Made by a program: the position numbers and the translations under genes. A stretch of DNA of 64,000 nucleotides from a virus, in the IMG/VR virus record IMGVR_UViG_3300032093_000012, positions 64,001 through 128,000 of that record. The stretch is one strand, 5' to 3'. The notes beneath the pieces are model-generated. The model was not told the origin of the DNA. It saw only the letters and a program-made list of their open reading frames with translations, and ran no database searches. Within the stretch, counting starts at the first letter, position 1, and every line of letters begins with the position of its first letter. This document shows positions 715 through 48,916 of this stretch, piece by piece.

Positions 715-996
715 ATGGATACATGGTTTAAATTAATTGCAGACGTCGGCTTTCCAATTGCTGCCGCCTGCGCTATGGGATACTTTATTTTTCTAACTAT
801 TAAATTTATCCTCGCCGGTGTCATGAGCAGCGTGCAAGGTCTCAGTGGAATCATTACTGCTTTGGATAACAGAGTTAAGACGATGAACCACGACGTCATA
901 AGAATCGACACTCTCGTCTCCAACGCCATGGGTGTTAAACCTGACATTGACCGTATCGCCCGTGCGGACGGCAAAAACGATGCTAGACGCGATTAA
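715..996 (+). CDS. Small membrane protein (GFPI motif, YvrJ/BhlA-holin-like), paralog of 1535..1888
   Basis: N-terminal LIADVGFPIAAACAMGYFIF TM segment followed by coiled coil; strong RBS. Confidence 0.7.
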   Translation: MDTWFKLIADVGFPIAAACAMGYFIFLTIKFILAGVMSSVQGLSGIITALDNRVKTMNHDVIRIDTLVSNAMGVKPDIDRIARADGKNDARRD

Positions 997-1063: not shown

Positions 1064-1531
1064 ATGAAAGTAAAAGATTCAATTGGTAAAGCTCTCGGTT
1101 TGTCTGAATGTATTGTCGATTTTGACATGTCAGAATATATATCGGAACCAATACCTAGTTTTTTCAAAGGATGCGCGCATACTGAAGAAACTAAAAAAGC
1201 TATTTCTGAAGCTTTCAAAGGGATTCCTATAGGTCCATTTTCTGAAGAGCATAAAAATAACATTTCTAAAGCCGCCAAAGGTCGAAAAGTTTGGAACAAA
1301 GGTCTTGATAAGTATGATCCTAGAGTTTTGAAAAATTCCATATCACGCTCTATGGTAAAATATAGTGAAGAAACTAAAAAAGCATTCAGAAAACCAAAAT
1401 CTGAAAAAGGAAAAATTAATATGAGTATTGGGCAAAAAGGTAAGCAATATCCTAAAATTCCATGTGAAATTTGTGGTTTAAAGTATTCTTCAAATGCTCT
1501 TCATTCTCATATGAAAACACACAAGGATTAA
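1064..1531 (+). CDS. NUMOD3-repeat DNA-binding protein with C-terminal C2H2-like Zn finger (homing-endonuclease-derived, no visible nuclease domain)
   Basis: HTEETKKAIS, FSEEHKNNISKAAKGRKVWNKG and YSEETKK repeats; CEICG...HMKTH. Confidence 0.75.
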   Translation: MKVKDSIGKALGLSECIVDFDMSEYISEPIPSFFKGCAHTEETKKAISEAFKGIPIGPFSEEHKNNISKAAKGRKVWNKGLDKYDPRVLKNSISRSMVKYSEETKKAFRKPKSEKGKINMSIGQKGKQYPKIPCEICGLKYSSNALHSHMKTHKD

Positions 1532-1534
1532 AAA

Positions 1535-1888
1535 ATGGGTGATATTGCTCAATTAATCTCAAAGTATGGTTTCCCTATCGTTGCAGCTGCAGGTATGGGT
1601 TATATGATATTCTATGTATGGACATGGGCAACGCAGGAAGTTAAACCTGTGTTATCAGAAGCTAATAAAGTTTTGATTGCTTTGATTGATCGTATTCGCA
1701 TGCTTGATAATGACCTTATTCGCTTGAATCAGAAAGTTAATATAGTCTTACAACTTCGTAAGATGGACCATGATGAACTAACAAAGCAAGCTCATGAGTT
1801 TATTGTTGAGGAACAAATCGGGTCCAAATCTATACCACAAAAAGAGCCCGAAAGTGATCCAAACACAAAACCCACAAAAGTAAAGTAA
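1535..1888 (+). CDS. Small membrane protein (GFPI motif), paralog of 715..996
   Basis: LISKYGFPIVAAAGMGYMIF TM segment; ALIDRIRMLDNDLIRL aligns with ALDNRVKTMNHDVIRI. Confidence 0.7.
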   Translation: MGDIAQLISKYGFPIVAAAGMGYMIFYVWTWATQEVKPVLSEANKVLIALIDRIRMLDNDLIRLNQKVNIVLQLRKMDHDELTKQAHEFIVEEQIGSKSIPQKEPESDPNTKPTKVK

Positions 1889-1889
1889 A

Positions 1890-3953
1890 TTACTTAGAAG
1901 TTGCACGATAAACACCATCCCAATCAGAGGGTAGAGGATTTTTCTTAAATTCCTCTACTCTTTCCATCATCATATCATAATACTCAGTCATTTCTCCGTT
2001 AAACGCAGATCTAAGAGTCTTATAATAATTTTCCAATGAAACCCAGTTCTGCTCTCTATAAAATTTAACAAAGTCAGCATGTGTTTTTGAATAAGCTCTA
2101 TTGATTCCAGTCTTTGGTACAATAGTGTATATATTGACACCCTGTGATTTGCCTTTAACTGCTAAACAATCAAGTTCTAAGCATAGATATTCATCTTTTA
2201 CTAGTTCATATGTTCTCTGACCAATTACAAGTTTAACATGATATGGTTTTGATTGACCCTCTAATCTTGAAGCAAGGTTTACTGAGTCACCAAGGCATGT
2301 ATAATCAAAACGCTGACTACTGCCCATGTTACCAACAACAACGGAGCCAGTATTAATACCGAGCCCCATGCCGAAAGGTGGTACGCCTTCAACAGAGATT
2401 TCGTCGTTGAATCTGGCCAAATCATCTAACATCTCCAGTGCTGTCTTAACAGCGTGTTTGGCATGATCTGCATCATCGAGTGGTGCATTCCAAAATGCCA
2501 TCTGTGCATCGCCAATATATTTGTCTAGTGTTCCATTATTCTCAAGTATCTTAGCAGTCATGGCCGTCATATAACGGTTCATGATTTTAGTTAAACCCTG
2601 AACGTCGCTTCCGTAATGCTCACTAATAGTAGTAAAGCCACGAACATCAGTAAACATGATTGATAATTCTCGAGTATCTCCACCAAGTTGTAGTAACTCC
2701 GGGTTCTTTTGAAGCTTCTCTACCAGAGCTGGAGATAGATAAGTTCCAAACTGTTTCTTGATTTGTTGTTTTAGTCTAAACTCTCTTGCAAAATTATTGA
2801 ATACAAGATGACCAAAAGTCATCGTAGAAGCAAAAAGTAAATAACTTGTATCCCATAACTGTGAATGCTCTTTAAACATATAGACAGAAAAAGCAACACA
2901 AGAAGATACGATCACTATATAAACAGGAACGGTCCACTTAACAGATGTTCTCGGCACTAGAAAAAGTAGCGATAATAATACTGATATCAGTATTAGTTTT
3001 TCTATTAAGTTACTATATCCTGGACGCGATATCGAAGAACCGTCAATGATAGTTTGCAGAGCACTTGCCTGTACATCATGCGCCCACTTCTCACCTACTG
3101 GTGTAGCTATTATACCACCGACACCCTCAATTGAAATGCCTAATATCACTATCTTTCCATCGACACGCTTATCGATCTCGGTAGCTTCTATTCTTTCGAA
3201 CTTTGTGTTCCATGTCGTCCAGATTCTTCCTCTTTCATCAGTCTGTATCGGCGCGAATGCAGGTACACGGACGAATTCTGGTCCAATCTCACTTGTTTTA
3301 ATTTGATAGCTAGGATCTCCAGCAGCCACTCGAATCGTTTCCAAAGGAATAGAAGGATAAAGACTCCCAGCAATATTGACAAGTAGAGGGATACGACGAA
3401 CCACACCGTCCACCTCACCAATGGTGGCGACCACTCCAACACCTCCGGCCACTTCGGCATGCTCACGTAAAGGACGTAGGCCGCCCCTCCAACGAAAGAC
3501 ATACTCAGTAGGGTTAACAGGCCCGATAGCAGCAAACCCACGACGTACAGCGTCTGGCGGTATATCTTGAGTAGTAGGTGTCTGAGCGATGACGACACCA
3601 TCCAGAGATTTTGTAAGTTCATTGTCGCCTCCAGCTCTATCTTTTTCTGAGAAAAGTATAGGCATAACTATAAGTGCTGCGCCGTTCTCTTTTAATTTAT
3701 TAACAGTCTTAGCTATATCTCTTCTATCAAACGGCCACTGGCCAAATTGTTTTACTGACTTCTCACCAAAATCAACTATTACTAATTCTTCTGATTTTTT
3801 CTCTTCGATAGAATTTATTAGATAATCAAAAGTCTTTAGTTGAAGTACCTGTACTGGACTAGGGTTGTACACATATACGACCAATAGCATTATCGCTGAG
3901 ATAACAACTGCCCAAACGCTGGTTAAAAGCTTTCCTAATATTTCCATGTTCAA
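1890..3953 (-). CDS. CHASE2-domain membrane adenylate cyclase (class III)
   Basis: N-terminal TM, CHASE2 motifs (GQWPFDR, DGVVRRIPL), 3 TMs, then cyclase motifs FTDVRGFT, DKYIGDAQMAFW, DYTCLGDSVNLASRLEG. K and T specificity residues point to ATP. Confidence 0.93.
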   Translation of the reverse strand: MNMEILGKLLTSVWAVVISAIMLLVVYVYNPSPVQVLQLKTFDYLINSIEEKKSEELVIVDFGEKSVKQFGQWPFDRRDIAKTVNKLKENGAALIVMPILFSEKDRAGGDNELTKSLDGVVIAQTPTTQDIPPDAVRRGFAAIGPVNPTEYVFRWRGGLRPLREHAEVAGGVGVVATIGEVDGVVRRIPLLVNIAGSLYPSIPLETIRVAAGDPSYQIKTSEIGPEFVRVPAFAPIQTDERGRIWTTWNTKFERIEATEIDKRVDGKIVILGISIEGVGGIIATPVGEKWAHDVQASALQTIIDGSSISRPGYSNLIEKLILISVLLSLLFLVPRTSVKWTVPVYIVIVSSCVAFSVYMFKEHSQLWDTSYLLFASTMTFGHLVFNNFAREFRLKQQIKKQFGTYLSPALVEKLQKNPELLQLGGDTRELSIMFTDVRGFTTISEHYGSDVQGLTKIMNRYMTAMTAKILENNGTLDKYIGDAQMAFWNAPLDDADHAKHAVKTALEMLDDLARFNDEISVEGVPPFGMGLGINTGSVVVGNMGSSQRFDYTCLGDSVNLASRLEGQSKPYHVKLVIGQRTYELVKDEYLCLELDCLAVKGKSQGVNIYTIVPKTGINRAYSKTHADFVKFYREQNWVSLENYYKTLRSAFNGEMTEYYDMMMERVEEFKKNPLPSDWDGVYRATSK

Positions 3954-4231
3954 TATTGATTGATAATATAAGGATTAGTTGCGCAATTACTAGTACAATG
4001 AATATCAAGCGATATAGACTTATTGGTATTGCCGGATTGTGTGATATTGATGGGGACGTTATCACCAGTACTATTAATAATAGCAGTGTGAAAGCCAATA
4101 CCAGATTGATTAATAATGACATTATTAAAGTTCCCTGTTAAGTTTACTGTAGCAGTATTCATAACAGGTGATGGTAGTGTCTGTGAAAATGCAGTTGATG
4201 TCATGAATAGAAGTGCTAATAGTGTTTTCAT
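3950..4231 (-). CDS. Small secreted curlin-repeat-like protein
   Basis: Signal peptide; N/Q/G-rich INQSG and ITQSG repeats; C-terminal Cys pair. Confidence 0.6.
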   Translation of the reverse strand: MKTLLALLFMTSTAFSQTLPSPVMNTATVNLTGNFNNVIINQSGIGFHTAIINSTGDNVPINITQSGNTNKSISLDIHCTSNCATNPYIINQY

Positions 4232-5361
4232 TCTGATTGCTTTATGGTAATTATGGTTGTTCCAGTATTGTTTATTATTTGTTTAACCTCTAAACCCTCT
4301 TGAGTTATCTTAAGAGTACCAGCTTTATATTGAGACATAGTTAGCTCGGCGTAGCTATTTACTGTTTCTCTATACAATGTTAGCATTTCATTTTCAACAA
4401 AAAACTTAAGACCACTGGTTGGATTAAATTTAGGCAGTAGAGAATTAAACTCACTGAGTTCATCTGATAATAATTGTGACGAAGCCACATCTAAGAAGTT
4501 ATAAAGATAATCAGCACTAAGAAAATCTCTGTTTAGCTTATTAAACTCTTTTAAAAAATCTTTATCTAATTCAGTATATTTTAAATAATCTTTCTTAAGA
4601 AAGTCTTCATCTAAGAAATTATATCCTCTTCTTTCAATAGTTCTTTCAGTTTGTTCTACAATTTTAGGTGGTGTTACAATGATTAAATTATTAACTTGAT
4701 TCAAATCTAAGTTTAATATTGCAGAAGCTGTCGGCCTTGAAAAGCTAGTATCAACAGTCGTAGTTTCAAATGGTTTTGTTAGTAATACTGTACCCATGAC
4801 AGATGATACTAAGATCTTACCGATAACACAATCTCTTTGTATATCTTTCCAACCTTCGGGACAAGATGGTAATAGTATTATTTGTGATCTTCCAAGTTCA
4901 TCGACCGTACTTGAAAAGTCTGTACCTCTGACACCTATAGTAGCAGTTGGTGTAGTAACTACAACTTGTTGTGGATCATTCTTAGCTATTTGACCTGATG
5001 CATATTTAATAGTACCAAGCGCCATCTTGATACCAAGTTTTCCTGTTTTCTTATCACCATCATAAACGAAGTTATCAATGACTAATTTACTATGTTCAGT
5101 TATCTGGACTCTAGTATCATCTTTAAAGGTTATTCCAGCTTTTGAATTTGCTGTTGTGATGACATCTTGCATCTCGACACCAAATTGCAATGCACTAGGA
5201 ATAACCTCAGATTGCCTCTTTATCTCTGTAGGTCCAGTTTGTTCTGTTACTTGTCCAACTGAAGCATTAGTTGTGGTTGGACTTAATAGTAACAGCGTTG
5301 CTAGAACCGGTAATAGTTGTAACGATCTTTGAATCAATTGCTCCACCCTGTCTAAAGTCAA
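4228..5361 (-). CDS. Secreted/periplasmic FecR-domain protein (start uncertain, overlaps curlin 3' end)
   Basis: ITFKDDTRVQITEHSKL and TPTATIGVRGTDF FecR motifs after a signal peptide ending TTTNA. Confidence 0.85.
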   Translation of the reverse strand: MTLDRVEQLIQRSLQLLPVLATLLLLSPTTTNASVGQVTEQTGPTEIKRQSEVIPSALQFGVEMQDVITTANSKAGITFKDDTRVQITEHSKLVIDNFVYDGDKKTGKLGIKMALGTIKYASGQIAKNDPQQVVVTTPTATIGVRGTDFSSTVDELGRSQIILLPSCPEGWKDIQRDCVIGKILVSSVMGTVLLTKPFETTTVDTSFSRPTASAILNLDLNQVNNLIIVTPPKIVEQTERTIERRGYNFLDEDFLKKDYLKYTELDKDFLKEFNKLNRDFLSADYLYNFLDVASSQLLSDELSEFNSLLPKFNPTSGLKFFVENEMLTLYRETVNSYAELTMSQYKAGTLKITQEGLEVKQIINNTGTTIITIKQSE

Positions 5362-5950
5362 CGGTGTTTAATGCACCATTTATTGATAAATCTACTTCAT
5401 GACCAGTAGTTCCTGCAGTTCCTGCCTGAACAACATCAACTATATTACCACTACCACCAACGATATCAACAAGATTCTTTGTACCAGCTACAGCAGATGA
5501 AGTATTTGTCATATTAACTTGGTTATTATCTGATTGTATGTTTACTGTAGTATTAGTTAGAGAGTTTGTACTCTGTGTTAGTGAGTTACCATCACCAGTT
5601 ACAGAATTAGTGATTGTTGATGGTCCACAAGAACCTCCATTAGCACCACACTCTAAATTTAGTATATTAGAACTGCCAGTAATGACAGATGATATAGTCG
5701 CACCATCTCCCATAACCGCCATATTCGTTACGTTATTATTGCCAATCTGCTCAATATTTACAGTGTTATTATCACCATTAAATGTTGATTTAACACTAGG
5801 TGTTCCAATTGCGTTTCCAGAACCAGACTGTGTGATGTTTATAGTAGAACCATCGCCGATCTGATCCATATAAATTAAGTTTGCCGCATTTACATAACCT
5901 GACATGACCAAGAATGATATAAACATCATCATTCTTGTGATTGTTTTCAT
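5267..5950 (-). CDS. Curlin (CsgA/CsgB-like) repeat protein
   Basis: Signal peptide; repeated x-Q-x-G-x-x-N beta-solenoid units (DQIGDGS, TQSGSGN, EQIGNNN); lies next to csgG/csgF. Confidence 0.8.
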   Translation of the reverse strand: MKTITRMMMFISFLVMSGYVNAANLIYMDQIGDGSTINITQSGSGNAIGTPSVKSTFNGDNNTVNIEQIGNNNVTNMAVMGDGATISSVITGSSNILNLECGANGGSCGPSTITNSVTGDGNSLTQSTNSLTNTTVNIQSDNNQVNMTNTSSAVAGTKNLVDIVGGSGNIVDVVQAGTAGTTGHEVDLSINGALNTVDFRQGGAIDSKIVTTITGSSNAVTIKSNHN

Positions 5951-6774
5951 TTTTTGTTTTCCTTTTTAGTTGTCTCTTTATACTTCCATAACTTCTTTTG
6001 AGAACCTTGTTTTATCATGTCAACTACTGCTGCTTCTATAGCTATCCTTACAGCATAAGTTGTAGGTTCATTTATAGAAGTACCTGCTTCTAACTCTACT
6101 GATCTTGTTCCAGCATCAACAAACTTAAATACATTAGCACTTACACCAGTGCTATAGATAGTCTTTGTCACACCGCTAGAAATTAATATCTCACCTGTGC
6201 TAATTGATATTAATCTCAACATAATAGTTACTTCGTCTTTACGATATTCTTGCTGTGCTCCAAGGCCAAGATAACGTGCACCAATACCACCAGTTGCAAT
6301 ATTACTATCATAACCAACTATACCACCCTCTATCATTATACCAGCTACTATAAGTGGTGTTAAGGGTTTGGCTTGTTCTTTTTCATATACTTCACGTTGA
6401 CTTCTAATAAGTTGTCTTTCTTTAACAAGATTATCAAGACTTACTCTCTCGATAGGTTTAAAGAACTTACCTTTTGAAGCATCCTGTAAAGCTTTTATTA
6501 GTATGACTTCTCCACCTTGTGTGACAGCAGAACTTAAACTAGCATAATTGCTGGTTGGTTTTCTTTGTCCACTCATATCAGAGAATTTATACACTGCCAC
6601 TGGTATAGGGTCGCCATTTACGGCTGGTATATTTATGAGCTCATTGAATCTTTTAGCAGTAATTATTTCTGCTTTATCTACTTGATTCTCTAAATCTTTA
6701 CTAGATGTTATCTTACTGCCTGTACATCCAGCCAAAGCCAAAGCACAGACCATTAAAAATGCATATCTTACCAT
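5947..6774 (-). CDS. csgG: Curli secretion channel lipoprotein CsgG
   Basis: Lipobox LAGC; VAVYKFSDMSGQRKP, SSAVTQG, LVKERQLIR, EGGIVGYD, GGIGARYLG motifs. Confidence 0.92.
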   Translation of the reverse strand: MVRYAFLMVCALALAGCTGSKITSSKDLENQVDKAEIITAKRFNELINIPAVNGDPIPVAVYKFSDMSGQRKPTSNYASLSSAVTQGGEVILIKALQDASKGKFFKPIERVSLDNLVKERQLIRSQREVYEKEQAKPLTPLIVAGIMIEGGIVGYDSNIATGGIGARYLGLGAQQEYRKDEVTIMLRLISISTGEILISSGVTKTIYSTGVSANVFKFVDAGTRSVELEAGTSINEPTTYAVRIAIEAAVVDMIKQGSQKKLWKYKETTKKENKK

Positions 6775-7205
6775 GCTAAGCTCCCGTATGGTACTACCAC
6801 TTGCGTAACACTACCACCGGGATCTGTAATTCTTAATGTTATAGTACTACCGTCAGACGTCCACTGTAAGTTATTTCCACCGATATCAAAAGATCCTGAA
6901 GATGCTCCGCCTTCTTTAAATAATTCAGCAGCGATATTTTGTGATATCGTTGCATAGATTCTACTCTCTAGATTATTCAAGAATTTAGCTAAGTTTGTGT
7001 TCTTAGCATCAGCTGCAGCTTTAGCTGCATCCGTCTTCTTGTCTTCTATAATCTTCTGCTTCCTTGTTTGTTCAAGGTTATCAATAGTTAAGACATGAGA
7101 CGAATAGCCGACGCCAGAAAAAGATGGGTTTTTAAACCCAAAGCTCACTTCACTTGCATAAGAAGCAGAAGAAAATAAGCACACTAGTAATGCTATCTTC
7201 TTCAT
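6768..7205 (-). CDS. csgF: Curli assembly protein CsgF-like
   Basis: Signal peptide then F-KNPSFSG motif; FLNNLESRIYA; C-terminal LRITDPGGSVTQVVVP. Confidence 0.8.
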   Translation of the reverse strand: MKKIALLVCLFSSASYASEVSFGFKNPSFSGVGYSSHVLTIDNLEQTRKQKIIEDKKTDAAKAAADAKNTNLAKFLNNLESRIYATISQNIAAELFKEGGASSGSFDIGGNNLQWTSDGSTITLRITDPGGSVTQVVVPYGSLAW

Positions 7206-7225
7206 GTTTTACTCCTGTTACTGGT

Positions 7226-8890
7226 TTATTTATAATCCCTCATCTCTTTCATATGTTGCTGTAGCTCAGGATCACCTATTAATGCTGGTTCCATAATAGG
7301 TTCAACTGAAGATTTTACGTACTTATGGAAAAGCATCTTAGCAGTCTCTTCATCTTTTGCCTTTGGAACACACATACCACAACCACAAAGGTCATGTGGG
7401 CATGTTATGTAGGGGATCTCCATGTTACCATAAAGATGATCTTTTAATTTTGATATGATCTTTGAGAACTCACTAACTTTACCGATAGGTTCCTCAACAC
7501 TATTAAGGCTTGTCCTACATGTCTGATGATGGAAGACAATATCCTTCTCTTGCTCAATATGCAAGAAGAACCAATTAATCATACACTTCCAGCCCTTAAA
7601 GTTTGTGTTCTTAGCAAACTTGATTTCATCCCACTGGTCTTTTTCAGAATGAACTGTTTGACAAGACAAGTCTCTGCCACCACAACACATCCTACCAATA
7701 GAACGGCCGACTACTTTACCTTCTTCAAACTTAGATTTCTTTAGAGTATCCACGGATTTAACAATGTTGAGTGGATCTTCAAAGTTCTTGCGTGACTCTC
7801 TTATCTTATCAAGTTTTTCTTGAAAATCAAAGTTGGCTGCTTCGATACTTTGCTTTGCAGGTTTATTAACATTATCGATAAGAGTATATGTTTTTTTTGA
7901 ATGTTCACCCTGTTCAATCAATACTGCAGGAACTTCTTCTTTCTTTTTACCTTTCATTGAAATATCAGCAACTTGCTGTTGTTTAATTTCAATCTTTTTA
8001 ATTTGCTTTTGTACTTCAACCGGTTCTTTAGACAAAAATTCTTCTACAGATTCTACTTCGACTTCTTTAGAACCAATTAGTCTATCAAAGAAACCATTCA
8101 CTGAATCTTCTACACTTAGACCACTAACTTTGATATTAGAGAAAGCATGTTCAGTAAGTTCTAAGTTTTTCTTATTCCAGTACATTGTAATGTATGCAGC
8201 CTGATCATGTGTATAGGCATGCACTTTACTTCTTGTAATTACTTTCTGCTTCTTAAGATCTACTTCATCTTTCTTTTGTTCTTCTAGTCTTTCACCAATA
8301 ATTCTAGGAATAAAATTAATCTTACGTGGTGTAAGAACATTCTCCATAAGATCAACACACTCATTAAAGTATTGATCATTGGCATGCATCATGACATTTA
8401 CTTTAAAACGTTGACCAATATCCTGTAGATGAAGGATATTCTTTACAACTTTTTCTTTCAATGTTGGGTGTGCTTCAGTATGGTAGCTAACAGTAATCAT
8501 GTTGAAGAGTTTAAGGATCTTCTCACTAGTATCTGTTGGCCAAGTAGCATTAGTCGTCATGCTAAGACGATACTTCTTAGGATAAGTGTCTCTAATCCAT
8601 TCTACAAACTTAAAGAAATTTGGATTAACAGTCGGCTCACCACCAGTGAAGCTAATAGTACATGCCATATCAATCTTATGAAATGATTTATAGATTGAAT
8701 AGTATTCGTCAATATGCTTCATGGTCTTCTTAAGTTCTTCCATCTCTGCATGAGCTGACCATGAATTATGCATGTATAGTGTACAATAGGTACAGTCGTA
8801 GTTGCATCTACGACCGAGATCCCATACAATCATCATATTATAGCCAGACTTTTCATTATAGTCAATGGCTGTCAAGAGTTGTTCTTGCAT
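7226..8890 (-). CDS. Radical SAM protein with long charged insert and Cys-rich C-terminus
   Basis: CNYDCTYC motif, FTGGEPT, C-terminal CCGGR, C..NWFFLH, CPHDLCGCGMC. Confidence 0.88.
   Translation of the reverse strand: MQEQLLTAIDYNEKSGYNMMIVWDLGRRCNYDCTYCTLYMHNSWSAHAEMEELKKTMKHIDEYYSIYKSFHKIDMACTISFTGGEPTVNPNFFKFVEWIRDTYPKKYRLSMTTNATWPTDTSEKILKLFNMITVSYHTEAHPTLKEKVVKNILHLQDIGQRFKVNVMMHANDQYFNECVDLMENVLTPRKINFIPRIIGERLEEQKKDEVDLKKQKVITRSKVHAYTHDQAAYITMYWNKKNLELTEHAFSNIKVSGLSVEDSVNGFFDRLIGSKEVEVESVEEFLSKEPVEVQKQIKKIEIKQQQVADISMKGKKKEEVPAVLIEQGEHSKKTYTLIDNVNKPAKQSIEAANFDFQEKLDKIRESRKNFEDPLNIVKSVDTLKKSKFEEGKVVGRSIGRMCCGGRDLSCQTVHSEKDQWDEIKFAKNTNFKGWKCMINWFFLHIEQEKDIVFHHQTCRTSLNSVEEPIGKVSEFSKIISKLKDHLYGNMEIPYITCPHDLCGCGMCVPKAKDEETAKMLFHKYVKSSVEPIMEPALIGDPELQQHMKEMRDYK
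7227..7234 (-). promoter_or_regulatory. Late promoter TATAAATA heading the csgF-to-cyclase operon
   Basis: tatttata on + strand, overlapping the upstream stop codon, 21 nt before the csgF ATG. Confidence 0.75.
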
Positions 8891-9159
8891 TATCGCTCCG
8901 ATACTTCTACTTCAACATACGACTCTTGAAATATTTCTCTATCACAAAAATAAAACTCACCTCTAATTCCTTTGCAAAGATAGTCACCCATCTTTCCAGT
9001 CATAGTACCTTCAAGAGTCCATACCATCATACCGGATGCTGTGCCATCAGGTCTTCGCGACACTGAAGCATTAGACCATTCAATAAGATCATCAATACTT
9101 TCTAGTGTTATTTGTCTAGCTTCAATGGGAATAGGCTTCTTCAAATAAAATGGCATCAC
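8890..9159 (-). CDS. Conserved phage protein (PGDYG-like)
   Basis: KKPIPIEA...TLEG...GDYLCKGIRGEFY motif common in phages. Confidence 0.7.
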   Translation of the reverse strand: MMPFYLKKPIPIEARQITLESIDDLIEWSNASVSRRPDGTASGMMVWTLEGTMTGKMGDYLCKGIRGEFYFCDREIFQESYVEVEVSER

Positions 9160-9848
9160 TTATCTCCAAGATCAAGAGCATCCTTCAACGACGGAAACAC
9201 TTCTGTAATTTGATACCAAGCATCAGTAGCAAGTTCACGATGTTCCTTCTGAGTCGAAGGGTCCATACGAACTTGACAGTAATGAATCCAGCTACGAAGA
9301 GAACCCTTCATGTACATGCGCGACATAGTAAGACCCTCAGGAAGCACGGCACGAGCCTGTTCCTTAGCGATATTATTCCATGATGCCCAGTTGTAAGCTT
9401 CTTGAGCAGCGTCAATAGCCTTCTGCTGCACTTCACGCCATCTTTCAGCAACAGTTGTTTTCTGATCCATGTCAATGCTGTTCTGACGGTTCTTTTCATC
9501 CTGCAAACGAGCTTCACGAGTAACGAAACCCATATCTTTAGTAGGATCAGCATAACGCTGACTGAACTCTTGAAACGAGAATGAACGATGACGAATAACT
9601 TGGCGTCCAATATCGCGAGTTGTATTGATCTCCATCACTACATCAACCATCTCAAATGGCGACCAATGTTTATGCTTTGCAAGATACTTCAACAGCTTTG
9701 GTGCAGTCAAAGTGTTATTTTGATTTGATGGGTTACTCACTCGAGCAACGTATGCAATGAACTCATCAACAGTAATATATGGTGCTTCGGGGTCATCAGA
9801 GGTACAAATAGTAGGCTGAGTAACGGCAATAATCTTAGCAGTATTCAT
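9156..9848 (-). CDS. thyX: FAD-dependent thymidylate synthase
   Basis: HWSPFE, RQVIRHRSFSFQEFSQRY, KEQARAVLP motifs. Confidence 0.96.
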   Translation of the reverse strand: MNTAKIIAVTQPTICTSDDPEAPYITVDEFIAYVARVSNPSNQNNTLTAPKLLKYLAKHKHWSPFEMVDVVMEINTTRDIGRQVIRHRSFSFQEFSQRYADPTKDMGFVTREARLQDEKNRQNSIDMDQKTTVAERWREVQQKAIDAAQEAYNWASWNNIAKEQARAVLPEGLTMSRMYMKGSLRSWIHYCQVRMDPSTQKEHRELATDAWYQITEVFPSLKDALDLGDK

Positions 9849-46345: not shown

Positions 46346-46422
46346 GGACCCTTAGCTCATTTGGTTAGAGTAGCGGTCTTTTAAACCGTTGGTACTGGGT
46401 TCGAATCCCAGAGGGTCTACCA
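46346..46422 (+). tRNA. tRNA-Lys(TTT)
   Basis: GCGGT-CTTTTAA-ACCGT; CCA. Confidence 0.92.
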
Positions 46423-46439
46423 TAATATGGAGAAGTGTA

Positions 46440-46673
46440 ATGAAGAAGATCTTTTTAGCAAGCGCATGTGGATTATTTTTGGCCGGTTGCAATGCAACTG
46501 TCTATGATAGTCGTCCATCAGTGTATGTTCCTCGGCCGGCAGTAGTCGTACCACCGGTGTATGCACCGTTGCCACCGCCGCGTCCTTACTATGTTCGTCA
46601 ACCTCGTAGAGAGTGTTTTACGACATGGGACCGTACTCCTTATGGGCTGCGCGAGCGAGTTGTCTGTCGTTAA
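46440..46673 (+). CDS. Small Pro-rich lipoprotein
   Basis: Lipobox LAGC; GGAG RBS. Confidence 0.7.
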   Translation: MKKIFLASACGLFLAGCNATVYDSRPSVYVPRPAVVVPPVYAPLPPPRPYYVRQPRRECFTTWDRTPYGLRERVVCR

Positions 46674-46679
46674 AAGTTT

Positions 46680-46769
46680 GGAAGGGTGGCCGAGTGGTTT
46701 AAGGCTCCAGTCTTGAAAACTGGCGTAGGCGCAAGTCTACCGTGAGTTCGAATCTCACCTCTTCCGCCA
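46680..46769 (+). tRNA. tRNA-Ser(TGA)
   Basis: CCAGT-CTTGAAA-ACTGG, long variable arm. Confidence 0.93.
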
Positions 46770-46774
46770 AATAA

Positions 46775-46852
46775 CCCGTGTTAGTGTAGCGATCAAACAT
46801 ACCCGCCTTTCAAGCGTGGAGATCATGGGTTTGAATCCCATACGCGGGACCA
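46775..46852 (+). tRNA. tRNA-Glu(TTC), atypical
   Basis: CTTTCAA loop, one anticodon-stem mismatch, T-loop TTTGAAT, CCA. Confidence 0.75.
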
Positions 46853-46856
46853 ATAC

Positions 46857-46932
46857 GGACCGTTAGCTGAGTTGGTTTTAGCAGGAGACTCTTAATCTCT
46901 TGACGGGGGTTCGAATCCCTCACGGTCTACCA
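46857..46932 (+). tRNA. tRNA-Lys(CTT)
   Basis: GGAGA-CTCTTAA-TCTCT. Confidence 0.9.
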
Positions 46933-46942
46933 AAAAGTTTAT

Positions 46943-47019
46943 TCGCTTGAACCCGAATGGGTATCGGGACCTGACTGTTAATCAGGCCACTGTAGGTTCG
47001 AATCCTACCAAGCGAGCCA
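46943..47019 (+). tRNA. tRNA-Asn(GTT)
   Basis: CCTGA-CTGTTAA-TCAGG. Confidence 0.88.
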
Positions 47020-47102
47020 AATTTGAAGTGTCGGCTTATAGCACTATAAATAAACCGATATATCATCACCGAGTGTTAGTGATGACGCTTCAAGCCAATT
47101 AT

Positions 47103-47177
<75 letters not shown>

Positions 47178-47190
47178 TTTTATAGGATAT

Positions 47191-47358
47191 ATGATGAATG
47201 AGTTTGTGATTGAAGTTGGTGATAAGCGTTTGCAAGTTCATGCAAACAATATGATTGAAGCTATTTACATAGCTAGATCATACAACCAAAAGCGACAAAC
47301 TTATAGAGTAACAGATACAAAGACTGGAAAAACCGTAACAGGTATTCCACTTGATTAG
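47191..47358 (+). CDS. Small hypothetical protein within the tRNA cluster
   Basis: Manual translation MMNEFVIEVGDK...GIPLD; AGGA RBS. Confidence 0.5.
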   Translation: MMNEFVIEVGDKRLQVHANNMIEAIYIARSYNQKRQTYRVTDTKTGKTVTGIPLD

Positions 47359-47361
47359 TTC

Positions 47362-47437
47362 GGGGCCATAGCTCAGCTGGGAGAGCGCTTGATTTGCATT
47401 CAAGAGGTCTGCGGTTCGATCCCGCATGGCTCCACCA
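47362..47437 (+). tRNA. tRNA-Ala(TGC)
   Basis: CTTGA-TTTGCAT-TCAAG; G3:U70. Confidence 0.95.
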
Positions 47438-47497
47438 ATAACGGTTAGTCGCGATAAATAGACTCGCGTGGGCCCACGGTTAGCCCATAACAGTTTC

Positions 47498-47573
<76 letters not shown>

Positions 47574-47579
47574 TATTGA

Positions 47580-47654
47580 CGCAGAGTGGAGCAGTAGTAG
47601 CTCGTTTGGTTCATACCCAAAAGGCCGGTGGTGCAATTCCATCCTCTGCAACCA
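47580..47654 (+). tRNA. tRNA-Met(CAT), initiator-like
   Basis: C1:A72 mismatch; TTTGG-TTCATAC-CCAAA. Confidence 0.8.
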
Positions 47655-47657
47655 ATT

Positions 47658-47808
47658 CACAGGGATGGGTTCCTGTGCGTCACCAACATCACCGATCGCA
47701 CGGTCTGATGTTGGGTATAGTGACCAGCCACTGAGGTCTGGAGTGTGCGATCGTCTAACCCATAAAATCTGACACGCGAAAAGGTGTCGCTGGATGGCAG
47801 TAACCAGC
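47658..47808 (+). ncRNA. Candidate double-pseudoknot ncRNA
   Basis: Five stems plus two loop-to-downstream complementarities (see findings). Confidence 0.65.
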
Positions 47809-47863
47809 TATGTTATAAAACGGCTAATAGTAGCAAATATTAGTAGCCGTTTCATAACATATT

Positions 47864-47940
47864 GGCCTCGTAGCTCAGTTGGTTAGAGTGCCAGCCTGTC
47901 ACGCTGGAAGTCGCCGGTTCGAGCCCGGTCGAGGTCGCCA
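47864..47940 (+). tRNA. tRNA-Asp(GTC)
   Basis: CCAGC-CTGTCAC-GCTGG. Confidence 0.95.
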
Positions 47941-47941
47941 T

Positions 47942-48017
47942 TCCGGAATAGTTCAGCTGGTAGAACATCAGACTCTGAATCTGAGTGTCGGTGGTTCGAA
48001 TCCATCTTCCGGATCCA
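47942..48017 (+). tRNA. tRNA-Gln(CTG)
   Basis: TCAGA-CTCTGAA-TCTGA. Confidence 0.92.
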
Positions 48018-48022
48018 AGCTT

Positions 48023-48099
48023 GGGGAAGTGCGCTGGAGAGGCAACAGCAGGGTCTGCAAAACCTTCGAATGTCGGTTCGAATCCGATCTTCCCTTCCA
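48023..48099 (+). tRNA. tRNA-Cys(GCA)
   Basis: AGGGT-CTGCAAA-ACCTT; U73. Confidence 0.85.
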
Positions 48100-48100
48100 T

Positions 48101-48177
48101 GTCTCGTTAGCTCAACTGAATAGAGCGTCGGTCTACGGAACCGAAGGTTGAGGGTTTGATTCCTTCACGGGACTCCA
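48101..48177 (+). tRNA. tRNA-Arg(ACG)
   Basis: TCGGT-CTACGGA-ACCGA. Confidence 0.9.
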
Positions 48178-48180
48178 TTT

Positions 48181-48255
48181 GCGGGTGTAGCTCAGTGGTA
48201 GAGCGTCACGTTGCCAACGTGAATGTCGTGGGTTCGACCCCCATTGCCCGCTCCA
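48181..48255 (+). tRNA. tRNA-Gly(GCC)
   Basis: TCACG-TTGCCAA-CGTGA; U73. Confidence 0.94.
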
Positions 48256-48260
48256 ATAAT

Positions 48261-48337
48261 GCGCGTGTGACGGAATTGGTATACGTATTAGTCTTAGAAA
48301 CTAAGTTTTGCAGGTTCAAGTCCTGCCATGCGCACCA
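48261..48337 (+). tRNA. tRNA-Leu(TAG) with short variable loop
   Basis: TTAGT-CTTAGAA-ACTAA; only ~5-nt variable region. Confidence 0.85.
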
Positions 48338-48343
48338 TAAATT

Positions 48344-48897
48344 AGGTTCACTACAGCATATAGACATGATAATAGGAAAGTTCCGGTGTACAATTCCGGA
48401 GGACCTAAGGGTCTTAGTGTAATAGGCTAGCACGTCCTAACCTAAGTGTGAACCTGCATAGTTTTAGGCTATCTACAGCATATCTTTCGCCTTGTAAGCC
48501 GTAGGTCGTTGGTTCGAATCCAACTAGGAGCTCTTTGCTTCTATAGCTCAGCGGATAGAGCAACGTAAATGCATAGCCTGTTGAAAATAAATGTTTACTT
48601 AATAAATCTTTATGGTATTATCAAGTTATAGAGTTTAAGGATCCGTACAGCATACTCGCCGTAAGGCACTTTTATTGGAAAAAGCAAAGGGATCCTGTTG
48701 AGTTTAAGATTGACCATACCGCAAAACATTTGACTCTTAGAGTCTTACAGCACTGATACAACTTTGCGAAGTTGTTATCCACGTGGATAGTTTCGAGGGT
48801 ACACCACGTTAAAAAAGGAAAGTAGAAGTCAATCTGTTGAGTTTAGATTCAGTTCCGCATACATTACAGTCTCGAAAAACTGACAAAGTTGAATCTG
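48344..48897 (+). ncRNA. Array of five Y-RNA-like stem-closed RNA cassettes; the first two contain permuted tRNA-like domains
   Basis: Units 48344-48456, 48466-48580, 48638-48697, 48707-48836, 48845-48897 share AGR-stem...(A/T)C(A/C)GCA...stem-CTG(TTGA). Confidence 0.75.
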
Positions 48898-48916
48898 TTG
48901 AAAAGGAGAAAGTGAA

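Follow-up and report, generated by a model that had tools for sequence, protein, structure and literature searches.

The window, a 64,000-nucleotide stretch from an uncultured marine T4-like phage, holds an intact viral curli block, and on balance we favour reading this block as a late-expressed chimera in which a fibre-export module is joined to a FecR-CHASE2 envelope sensor of bacterial origin that reads the state of export or of the fibre. Six co-oriented minus-strand genes, abutting or overlapping, follow a single TATAAATA motif in the order csgF, csgG, curlin, FecR-domain gene, short curlin-like gene and CHASE2 cyclase (Table 1), which is the arrangement that an initial annotation of this DNA had described. 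From csgF to the cyclase the junctions overlap by 7, 4, ~95, 4 and 4 nt, the last becoming 0 nt if the cyclase begins at the ATG at 3947, the start used by public gene callers. The block is already known, being one more example of the curli (type VIII secretion) region that SAR11 and OM43 phages carry. The remark in the initial annotation that curli genes occur in some aquatic myophages extends to the whole block, FecR and cyclase included, which has been published for pelagiphages as a T8SS+FecR+AC region (Wittmers et al. 2022, PMC9599517); the viral curli region is also treated by Zaragoza-Solas et al. 2020 (PMC7029224). Added here are linkage across 103 loci, a pair of small membrane proteins, the proposed chimeric origin, a weakly curlin-like FecR tail and a search for a cAMP receiver.

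The promoter motif overlaps the stop codon of the radical-SAM ORF upstream and has no further copy inside the block (1890-7226), while the window as a whole holds 13 copies against 5.9 expected. The single sigma-like ORF of the phage, a Sigma70_r2-like protein that is possibly a gp55-like late sigma, lies ~70 kb from the block and outside the window. Signal peptides are present on all five non-cyclase products, and the sixth places its CHASE2 domain in the periplasm and its catalytic domain in the cytoplasm; the parts of the block thus span the whole envelope.

Table 1. Features of the curli block and its flank in the window
Feature	Coordinates	Strand	Basis or remark
sm1, small membrane protein, 93 aa, sm2 paralogue	715..996	+	own TATAAATA at 682-689
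sm2, 117 aa, one N-terminal TM, helical tail	1535..1888	+	phrog_18771; convergent on cyclase gene
Inner-membrane CHASE2 class III adenylate cyclase	1890..3953	-	PF05226, E 2e-36; PF00211 (Guanylate_cyc), E 1e-20
Short curlin-like exported protein, 93 aa	3950..4231	-	BLAST to block curlin, E 9e-6
Exported FecR-domain protein, 377 aa	4228..5361	-	PF04773, E 6e-12
Curlin-type secreted subunit, 227 aa	5267..5950	-	family Curlin_rpt matches, AF2 model
csgG, type VIII secretion outer-membrane lipoprotein pore	5947..6774	-	PF03783, E 2e-51
csgF, exported CsgF-family protein, partner of CsgG pore	6768..7205	-	PF10614, E 8e-18
T4-type late promoter motif TATAAATA	7227..7234	-	21 nt upstream of csgF ATG

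Pore and fibre genes

Phage CsgG carries an LAGC lipobox and aligns full-length to E. coli CsgG structures (E 1e-47). CsgF has a signal peptide and a mature N-terminus with the motif F-x-F-K-N-P-S-F-S-G, and matches solved E. coli CsgF weakly (E 0.44, residues 3-35). The 227-residue subunit comprises ~8 strand-turn-strand repeats with I-x-Q-x-G-x-x-N motifs. Alone it stays below the cut-off against Curlin_rpt (E 0.003), but the profile is matched by 9 of 17 members of the phage curlin family (best E 9e-8), and an HMM of this family recovers curlin genes adjoining bacterial csgG. The AF2 model of the subunit is a beta-solenoid (pLDDT 88) whose top VIA match, tied with other solenoids, is CsgA 8c50 (Z 17.5, rmsd 8.8, 188 aligned, 20% identity). 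The phage curlin is a real curlin, and the curli part looks like a genuine fibre-export module in which csgF, csgG and one or two curlins would export the beta-solenoid subunit through a CsgG-CsgF outer-membrane pore. The short curlin-like protein, which has no Pfam match above cut-off, is the variable member of the block: in relatives it ranges from 87 to 484 aa or is absent, and a second curlin is found in 26 of 47 phage loci. As the initial annotation had noted, CsgE and CsgC are missing, with no family match for either, even at E up to 1, across the 167 kb of the phage record. The CsgE gate and the CsgC chaperone are not universal outside Gammaproteobacteria.

The FecR-domain protein and the CHASE2 cyclase

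The FecR-domain gene starts at a TTG at 5361 or a GTG at 5346, and its product combines a signal peptide, a beta domain at ~36-205, an acidic segment of D-x-L repeats and a C-terminal curlin-like strand motif. In Foldseek the AF2 model hits anti-sigma factors in their periplasmic domains (4m0h/4m0n, and PupR 6ovk_R; probability 1.00, TM 0.5 by target), a fold resembling the protein-binding periplasmic domains of PupR-type regulators. The C-terminal motif is conserved across distant phages and beats shuffles against the curlin profile, and hhalign aligns it to the last curlin repeat (P 0.004). The curlin resemblance of the FecR C-terminus is nevertheless weak: the hhalign probability is 8%, and only 35% of sequences score above the 95th percentile of shuffles.

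With a complete pore, a real curlin and reported expression in ocean metatranscriptomes (PMC9599517), the block might do nothing beyond producing curli-like fibres that serve aggregation, 'sibling capture' or defence against superinfection (PMC9599517, PMC7029224); the cyclase and a FecR protein read as an iron regulator would then do no more than regulate the fibre genes in the manner of cAMP and CsgD in enterobacteria. We consider this unlikely. The FecR protein has no cytoplasmic anti-sigma N-domain and no TM segment, the N-terminal signal-peptide-like stretch being its sole hydrophobic segment; no STN-domain transducer was matched in the phage, and no ECF sigma adjoins the FecR gene, the only sigma-like ORF being the distant one described above. 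Neither CsgD, a cNMP-binding protein nor a kinase was found in the phage, and no clumping was observed with the related Methylophilales phage Melnitz (PMC9004378). Since a single late promoter motif serves all six genes, any transcriptional control that the block made for itself would also come late.

The cyclase is laid out as a TM segment, a periplasmic CHASE2 domain, three TM segments, a cytoplasmic cyclase domain and a conserved C-terminal tail, with hydrophobic segments at 10-28 and ~316-390. Residues were assigned by alignment to the closest solved catalytic domain among natural proteins, that of P. aeruginosa CyaB (3r5g), and include the metal Asp pair (D436, D482), the adenine-specifying Lys with its Thr/Asp partner (K478, T552) and the transition-state Asn and Arg (N559, R563). 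Across 67 distinct phage homologues there is no variation at D436, K478, D482, R563 or K600; position 552 varies among T, S and D, and position 559 between N and S. This bears out the earlier statement that the catalytic residues are intact. Judged by these residues, the enzyme is predicted to be built for cAMP synthesis. Its periplasmic CHASE2 sensor domain is conserved among the phages (mean 48% identity), from which we argue that cyclase activity is regulated.

Phage and bacterial contexts of the two modules

In 103 phage loci, counted where the flank suffices, csgF is present in 95/95, curlin and FecR in 84/84 and the cyclase in 47/47. The cyclase and FecR genes thus accompany csgG in every sufficiently flanked locus, and the lack of co-occurrence that the initial annotation had named as evidence against its sensing pathway was not seen. 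The bacterial picture, drawn from the best 80 hits per scan with naive ORF calls, is one of separate contexts. FecR and CHASE2 occur in 0 of 71 bacterial curli loci, and CsgG in 0 of 80 bacterial CHASE2-cyclase loci (best 80 hits). An exported FecR-domain ORF lies within 6 kb in 32 of these 80 cyclase loci, directly adjacent in ~20; type I secretion genes are found in 30, and neither neighbour in 31. The bacterial FecR neighbours are often fused to cadherin, Big_9, VWA or RTX repeats, with ABC, HlyD and OEP genes adjoining, and one such genome has further FecR-CHASE2 pairs at other sites, although a genome-wide search with the phage FecR does not always find its best match in the copy next to CHASE2. 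Type I secretion genes are the usual company of the bacterial pair, and the FecR domain often forms the N-terminal portion of a large secreted adhesin. This distribution suggests that the FecR protein and the cyclase are an envelope-sensor pair borrowed from bacteria.

A different origin for the linkage would be that the cyclase is independent cargo, a host-takeover gene that floods or drains nucleotides and travels with the curli genes by transfer of the whole block. Such transfer between phage families has been described (PMC9599517), and in some phage loci the cyclase is inverted or lies several kb from the FecR gene. The linkage outlasts these rearrangements (47/47), however, the CHASE2 domain is conserved to the degree given above and FecR-CHASE2 adjacency recurs in bacteria, and we regard the cargo explanation as improbable.

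A pair of small one-TM paralogues, sm1 and sm2, accompanies the block in 37 of 40 phage loci, and among 50,697 phage records the family is confined to the six that bear curli genes. The holin-like leads for these proteins are weak, comprising phrog_4898 (E 1e-4 over 21 residues) and an Atlas lead to Holin_BhlA (0.83, below the reliable range). Here the two genes are split by a homing-endonuclease-like ORF. The linkage and restriction of the pair, the holin-like leads, the absent CsgE gate and the late expression predicted for all genes could be accommodated by a role in lysis timing, in which CsgG-CsgF is a pinholin-like valve or an outer-membrane pore without a gate (PMC9004378), and one sm protein would serve as holin and the other as antiholin, with the timing set by the cyclase. 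This appears distinctly unlikely. The holin resemblance is too weak to pass a reliable threshold, opening the outer membrane leaves the inner membrane polarised, the scheme has no role for the conserved curlin and FecR genes, and in this phage the block has neither an endolysin nor a spanin linked to it.

The sensing model and known systems

The chimeric reading that we favour provides a possible route from the cell surface to the cytoplasm. The exported FecR-fold protein and the inner-membrane CHASE2 cyclase would form the sensor pair, with the FecR-fold protein as a periplasmic link whose weakly curlin-like C-terminus may engage curlin or the pore and whose FecR domain may engage the CHASE2 domain. 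Cyclase activity, and hence cytoplasmic cAMP, would then depend on the state of the surface fibre or of export. The gene content, topology, intact catalytic residues, strict phage linkage and separate bacterial settings of the two modules are shown, whereas these contacts, the way in which the signal runs and what cAMP acts on are inferred. The general proposal of trans-envelope sensing made in the initial annotation is supported in part, by the phage linkage, the envelope-spanning topology, the bacterial FecR-CHASE2 pairs and the NsrA precedent discussed below. Against it, a search of the phage for a cNMP_binding or GAF protein gave no match, and only 2 of 61 genomes of Pelagibacteraceae (SAR11 family), a family that may not be the host of this phage, have cNMP-binding domains. 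An output of cAMP-Clr/CRP type thus has no visible receiver.

The initial annotation had also named a signal, namely that superinfecting virions or curlin from lysed neighbours feed into cAMP, for example to time lysis; delaying or timing lysis in this way would be an analogue of lysis inhibition. The parts do span the envelope, and an outer-membrane barrel feeding CHASE2 cyclases is a precedent (PMC13001267), but this signal is not indicated by anything in the sequence and a receiver is again missing. As the hosts are very dilute planktonic cells, superinfection should moreover be rare. We consider this version highly improbable, and the analysis gives no indication that the signal is superinfecting virions or released curlin, or that the output is lysis timing.

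A stricter form of the favoured model, which we think unlikely, has the FecR-fold protein run through the pore as a physical tether that links the outside fibre to CHASE2. The curlin-like C-terminus and long acidic linker would enter or cross the CsgG channel and join the fibre, while the folded FecR domain, too large for the channel, would stay periplasmic and touch CHASE2, so that assembly, load or loss of the fibre outside would be read out directly as cAMP inside. If true, this would amount to a hitherto undescribed, general 'secretion-cargo occupancy sensor', whose logic would extend to bacterial adhesins with an N-terminal FecR domain where their genes adjoin those for type I secretion and for a CHASE2 cyclase. 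More broadly, if the FecR-CHASE2 pair reads pore or fibre state, a ligand class would be assigned to CHASE2 domains, which are poorly understood so far, and the phage would install a complete surface-to-cytoplasm sensor in a host seemingly without cAMP signalling. The missing receiver is a sharp and testable question. The block has been reported from all sampled ocean stations, carried by phages that infect the most abundant bacteria of the sea (PMC9599517).

The same region is present in Pelagibacter phage HTVC008M (KC465899, 7562-13807) and in Melnitz (MZ577098, ~50731-56876; PMC9004378), both T4-like myophages with the same six genes in the same order, CsgE absent and proteins 31-48% identical to those described here. 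They differ in having a second curlin of 338-441 aa, compared with 93 aa, and sm genes upstream of csgF, which in the present phage lie downstream and convergent. The published accounts (PMC9599517, PMC7029224, PMC9004378) name neither the CHASE2 domain nor the small proteins, nor do they mention the company of FecR and CHASE2 in bacteria. Bacterial curli systems (E. coli csgBAC/csgDEFG; csgF-csgG-curlin in Bacteroidota and Proteobacteria) share CsgG (40-52% identity), CsgF and a curlin-repeat subunit, whereas the phage lacks CsgE, CsgC and CsgD and its CsgG constriction loop is divergent.

For the sensor half, the S. meliloti cyclases CyaD1, CyaD2 and CyaK have the CHASE2 domain, TM segments, class III cyclase and same conserved C-terminal tail, the phage enzyme being 29-41% identical to alphaproteobacterial relatives, and in Sinorhizobium meliloti a FecR-domain gene, smc02177, lies beside cyaD1 (PMC5498481). 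These CHASE2 cyclases are reported to sense their signal through the outer-membrane barrel NsrA, with Clr as regulator (PMC13001267, PMC5498481); the outer-membrane partner in the phage would instead be CsgG, and no Clr/CRP-type receiver was found in the phage or in most of the SAR11-family genomes. Burkholderia and Pseudomonas have an operon of a LysM-FecR protein and a CHASE2 histidine kinase (PMC5192318), in which an exported FecR-domain protein is likewise encoded directly upstream of a CHASE2 membrane sensor, although the pathway there ends in a histidine kinase and a response regulator and the FecR protein carries LysM rather than a curlin-like tail. The periplasmic FecR fold is shared with FecIRA/PupR cell-surface signalling, from which the phage protein departs in lacking the anti-sigma domain, membrane anchor, STN-domain transducer and adjacent ECF sigma. 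In PupR this fold binds the periplasmic domain of an outer-membrane protein. LapA is a type I-secreted adhesin with an N-terminal periplasmic retention module. The phage differs from LapA-type systems in its CsgG pore and curlin repeats, and we infer periplasmic retention of its FecR domain; the bacterial CHASE2-cyclase loci resemble them in placing a FecR domain near the N-terminus of cadherin/RTX proteins.

The six-gene block and its surroundings

The block comprises six head-to-tail minus-strand ORFs within an IMG/VR virus record of 167,475 bp that is estimated to be 99% complete and of which the window covers bases 64001-128000. In order, the products match Pfam CsgF (E 8e-18), CsgG (E 2e-51), Curlin_rpt weakly (E 0.003) and FecR (E 6e-12), followed by a 93-aa curlin-like ORF for which the Pfam search returned no match, and a cyclase matching both CHASE2 (E 2e-36) and Guanylate_cyc (E 1e-20). 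Successive genes overlap by 7, 4, about 95, 4 and 4 nt. The T4-type late promoter motif TATAAATA precedes csgF and occurs 13 times in the window against 5.9 expected, with no copy inside the block. CsgF, both curlin-like proteins and the FecR protein carry signal peptides and CsgG a lipobox, while CsgE and CsgC had no match anywhere in the phage record. The cyclase begins with a single hydrophobic segment, followed by CHASE2 in the periplasm, further membrane segments at about 316-390 and, in the cytoplasm, the catalytic domain, which aligns best with the phytochrome-cyclase fusion 6fht and P. aeruginosa CyaB (3r5g). Across 67 distinct phage homologues there is no variation at D436, K478, D482, R563 or K600; T, S or D occupies position 552, and N or S position 559. 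The initial annotation had described this gene order, the late motif, intact catalytic residues and the lack of CsgE and CsgC; as the ORF, Pfam, motif, catalytic-residue and CsgE/CsgC checks agree, every point is confirmed. No phage record matched the block by megablast, and its relatives are therefore recognisable at the protein level only.

The radical-SAM ORF 5' of csgF is found only in the closest relatives (loci L004-L007), and a gene for ThyX, a flavin-dependent thymidylate synthase, lies a short distance further upstream. The sole Sigma70_r2-like ORF of the phage, about 70 kb from the block and outside the window, is possibly a gp55-type late sigma factor reading TATAAATA. Elsewhere in the window, many small ORFs at 35.6-46 kb, where G+C rises to 0.44-0.51 from about 0.36 elsewhere, precede a tRNA gene cluster.

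Features of the phage record and of related bacterial loci (window coordinates unless a locus is named; G000:C1 is the whole phage record)
Feature	Coordinates	Strand	Remarks
sm1, small membrane protein	715-996	+	phrog_18771; own TATAAATA at 682-689
NUMOD3 and C2H2-zinc-finger ORF	1064-1531	+	phrog_314; homing-endonuclease-like; TATAAATA at 999-1006
sm2, small membrane protein	1535-1888	+	phrog_18771; paralogue of sm1
Six-gene block	7205 to 1890	-	
Acidic D-x-L / D-F-L repeat segment	4462-4683	-	FecR residues about 227-300; pattern kept across phage homologues
Late promoter motif TATAAATA	7227-7234	-	21 nt 5' of csgF start; spans stop codon of radical-SAM ORF
Radical-SAM ORF, 554 aa	7226-8890	-	directly upstream of block; stop codon within late promoter motif
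ThyX gene	9156-9848	-	likewise in Melnitz
tRNA cluster	46346-51879	+	21 tRNA genes
Sigma70_r2-like ORF, 215 aa	G000:C1:137707-137850	-	
Giant N-terminal-FecR repeat protein	L029:5326-9879		directly beside CHASE2 cyclase
Giant N-terminal-FecR repeat protein	L028:6030-9707		directly beside CHASE2 cyclase
Giant N-terminal-FecR repeat protein	L054:5538-9746		directly beside CHASE2 cyclase
HlyD-type membrane-fusion protein	L036:8279-9994	+	N-terminal cNMP-binding domain; beside CHASE2 cyclase

Linkage in phages and separate bacterial contexts

We collected 103 phage loci from IMG/VR contigs, two isolates and MAG-binned contigs, with CsgG 42-95% identical to that of the window. Counting only where the contig leaves room, csgG is linked to csgF in 95/95 loci, to curlin in 84/84 and to a second curlin in 26/47. 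The initial annotation would have been contradicted had FecR and the cyclase failed to co-occur with csgG; within the best 80 matches per scan, FecR is linked in 84/84 loci and the cyclase in 47/47. The cyclase may alternatively be an independent host-takeover enzyme, and in some loci its gene is inverted or several kb away, with linkage kept; a lower frequency of the cyclase is reported for podoviruses (PMC9599517). A bacterial origin of the whole block was dropped: the MAG contigs concerned (L022-24, L105-113) have further phage genes in common with the window and are therefore phage contigs binned into MAGs. The block is also present on five IMG/VR contigs of 286-364 kb (L210, L213, L221, L223 and L231), which could represent jumbo phages or result from mis-joining.

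Bacterial counterparts were gathered with a profile built from the cyclase and its relatives (best 80 matches, mostly Alphaproteobacteria), and neighbours were sought by running HMMs locally on naive ORF calls over 10 kb on each side. The full-length bacterial CHASE2 cyclases are 29-41% identical to the phage cyclase and have its C-terminal tail in common. CsgG, CsgF and curlin occur in none of the 80 loci within this distance. An exported FecR-domain ORF lies within 6 kb in 32/80, directly adjacent in about 20, and type I secretion ABC or HlyD genes lie within 6 kb in 30/80; both are present in 13 loci and neither in 31. TolC-like OEP genes, TPR/Slam-like barrels or GAF-HD proteins accompany some of the cyclases. 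Every bacterial FecR neighbour begins with a signal peptide. Where type I secretion genes are present, the neighbours are proteins of 1000-1500 aa with the FecR domain close to the N-terminus and cadherin, Big_9, VWA and RTX repeats, of which three giant examples are tabulated; in other loci the neighbours are TPR-repeat fusions. About 14 of the 80 loci include cNMP-binding ORFs. In one case, from a marine alphaproteobacterial single-cell genome (L036), the cNMP-binding domain is fused to HlyD, an arrangement which suggests a direct action of cAMP on type I secretion.

Conversely, neither FecR nor a CHASE2 cyclase was found within 10 kb of any of 71 genuine bacterial curli loci. The counts within 10 kb, 0/71 curli loci versus 34/80 CHASE2 loci, also provide an internal control against chance adjacency. 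Published cases fit these separate contexts: Burkholderia and Pseudomonas encode a LysM-FecR protein together with a CHASE2 kinase (PMC5192318), and smc02177 adjoins cyaD1 in S. meliloti (PMC5498481). The bacterial FecR-CHASE2 pairing is not exclusive. Other FecR paralogues stand alone, and one genome has three FecR-CHASE2 cyclase pairs. The proposal that phage FecR is a specific orthologue of the CHASE2-adjacent copies was not upheld, as that copy is its best genome-wide match in only some of five genomes and the best hits are sometimes stand-alone paralogues.

Curlins, the FecR protein and small membrane proteins

The phage curlin is a real curlin. Curlin_rpt matches nine of 17 family members (best E 9e-8), and the family profile picks up csgG-adjacent curlin genes in Flavobacterium, Hymenobacter, Noviherbaspirillum, Pseudoalteromonas and Colwellia. 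The AF2 model, from an alignment that left out rows from GenBank phage loci, has about eight stacked strand-turn-strand units (pLDDT 88, pTM 0.81). In a VIA wide search of 48,161 PDB representatives its top match is the Pontibacter CsgA curli subunit 8c50 (Z 17.5, tied with unrelated solenoids; 188 aligned, rmsd 8.8, 20% identity), and Foldseek found no significant match in the PDB. The 93-aa protein resembles the curlin N-terminal repeats (E 9e-6). The block may alternatively produce fibres under ordinary regulators.

In the AF2 model of the FecR protein (pLDDT 70), a beta domain predicted with confidence at about residues 36-205 is followed by the low-confidence acidic segment, a helix and short C-terminal strands. 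Foldseek matches the beta domain to anti-sigma-factor periplasmic domains, among them the one with which PupR binds its outer-membrane transducer. The protein has neither an anti-sigma domain nor a membrane anchor, and the phage encodes no STN-domain protein; a role as an iron regulator was dropped because the anti-sigma domain, an STN transducer and an adjacent sigma factor are all absent. The last ~35 residues keep the pattern h-x-I-x-Q-x-G ... I-x-I-x-Q-x-N across very distant phage homologues. This C-terminus falls on the last curlin repeat in hhalign (P 0.004, probability only 8%), and FecR C-termini average 4.3 bits against the curlin profile compared with 0.4 bits for shuffles, 35% exceeding the shuffles' 95th percentile; the resemblance to curlin is weak, though consistent.

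The paralogues sm1 and sm2, each with a single membrane segment at the N-terminus and a helical tail, are adjacent in relatives and are separated here by the NUMOD3/zinc-finger ORF. Of 40 loci having both flanks, 37 have homologues alongside the block, lying 5' of csgF, between the FecR gene and cyclase, or 3' of the cyclase, and a search of 50,697 phage records placed the family in the six that bear curli and in no other. The block may alternatively form a lysis pore, as in the lysis-timing pore proposed by Buchholz et al. 2022 (PMC9004378); a holin resemblance of the sm family is a lead only (phrog_4898, E 1e-4 over 21 residues; Atlas Holin_BhlA 0.83).

A proposed chimeric envelope module and its precedents

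The best-supported reading of the block is a chimera of a curli-type fibre-export module and a FecR-CHASE2 envelope-sensor pair, the latter accompanying other secretion systems and adhesin cargo in bacteria. In such a chimera the FecR protein would couple the state of export or of the fibre to the cyclase. The trans-envelope sensing anticipated in the initial annotation is partly supported by the sensor pair and has a precedent in NsrA, which acts upstream of CHASE2 cyclases (PMC13001267); the proposed signals, virions or released curlin, and a lysis-timing output found no support. The boldest reading, and an unlikely one, is that FecR is a tether threaded through the pore, such that cAMP would report fibre occupancy. 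No cNMP-binding, GAF or HATPase_c match was found in the phage. Of 61 genomes in the family of a Pelagibacter MAG, 2 have cNMP_binding and 3 a class III cyclase domain; a CRP/Clr-type output is therefore without a visible receiver in SAR11-type hosts.

The block is already known from the pelagiphage literature. The curli operon of pelagimyophages was described by Zaragoza-Solas et al. 2020 (PMC7029224), and Wittmers et al. 2022 added FecR and adenylate cyclase, with a histidine kinase in podoviruses, and stated that FecR, cyclase and kinase are not part of bacterial curli operons (PMC9599517). CHASE2 is unmentioned in PMC7029224, PMC9004378 and PMC9599517, and the literature searched contained no further paper joining phage, curli, FecR and cyclase. 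The Pelagibacter phage HTVC008M and the Methylophilales phage Melnitz also carry these six genes, arranged in this order.
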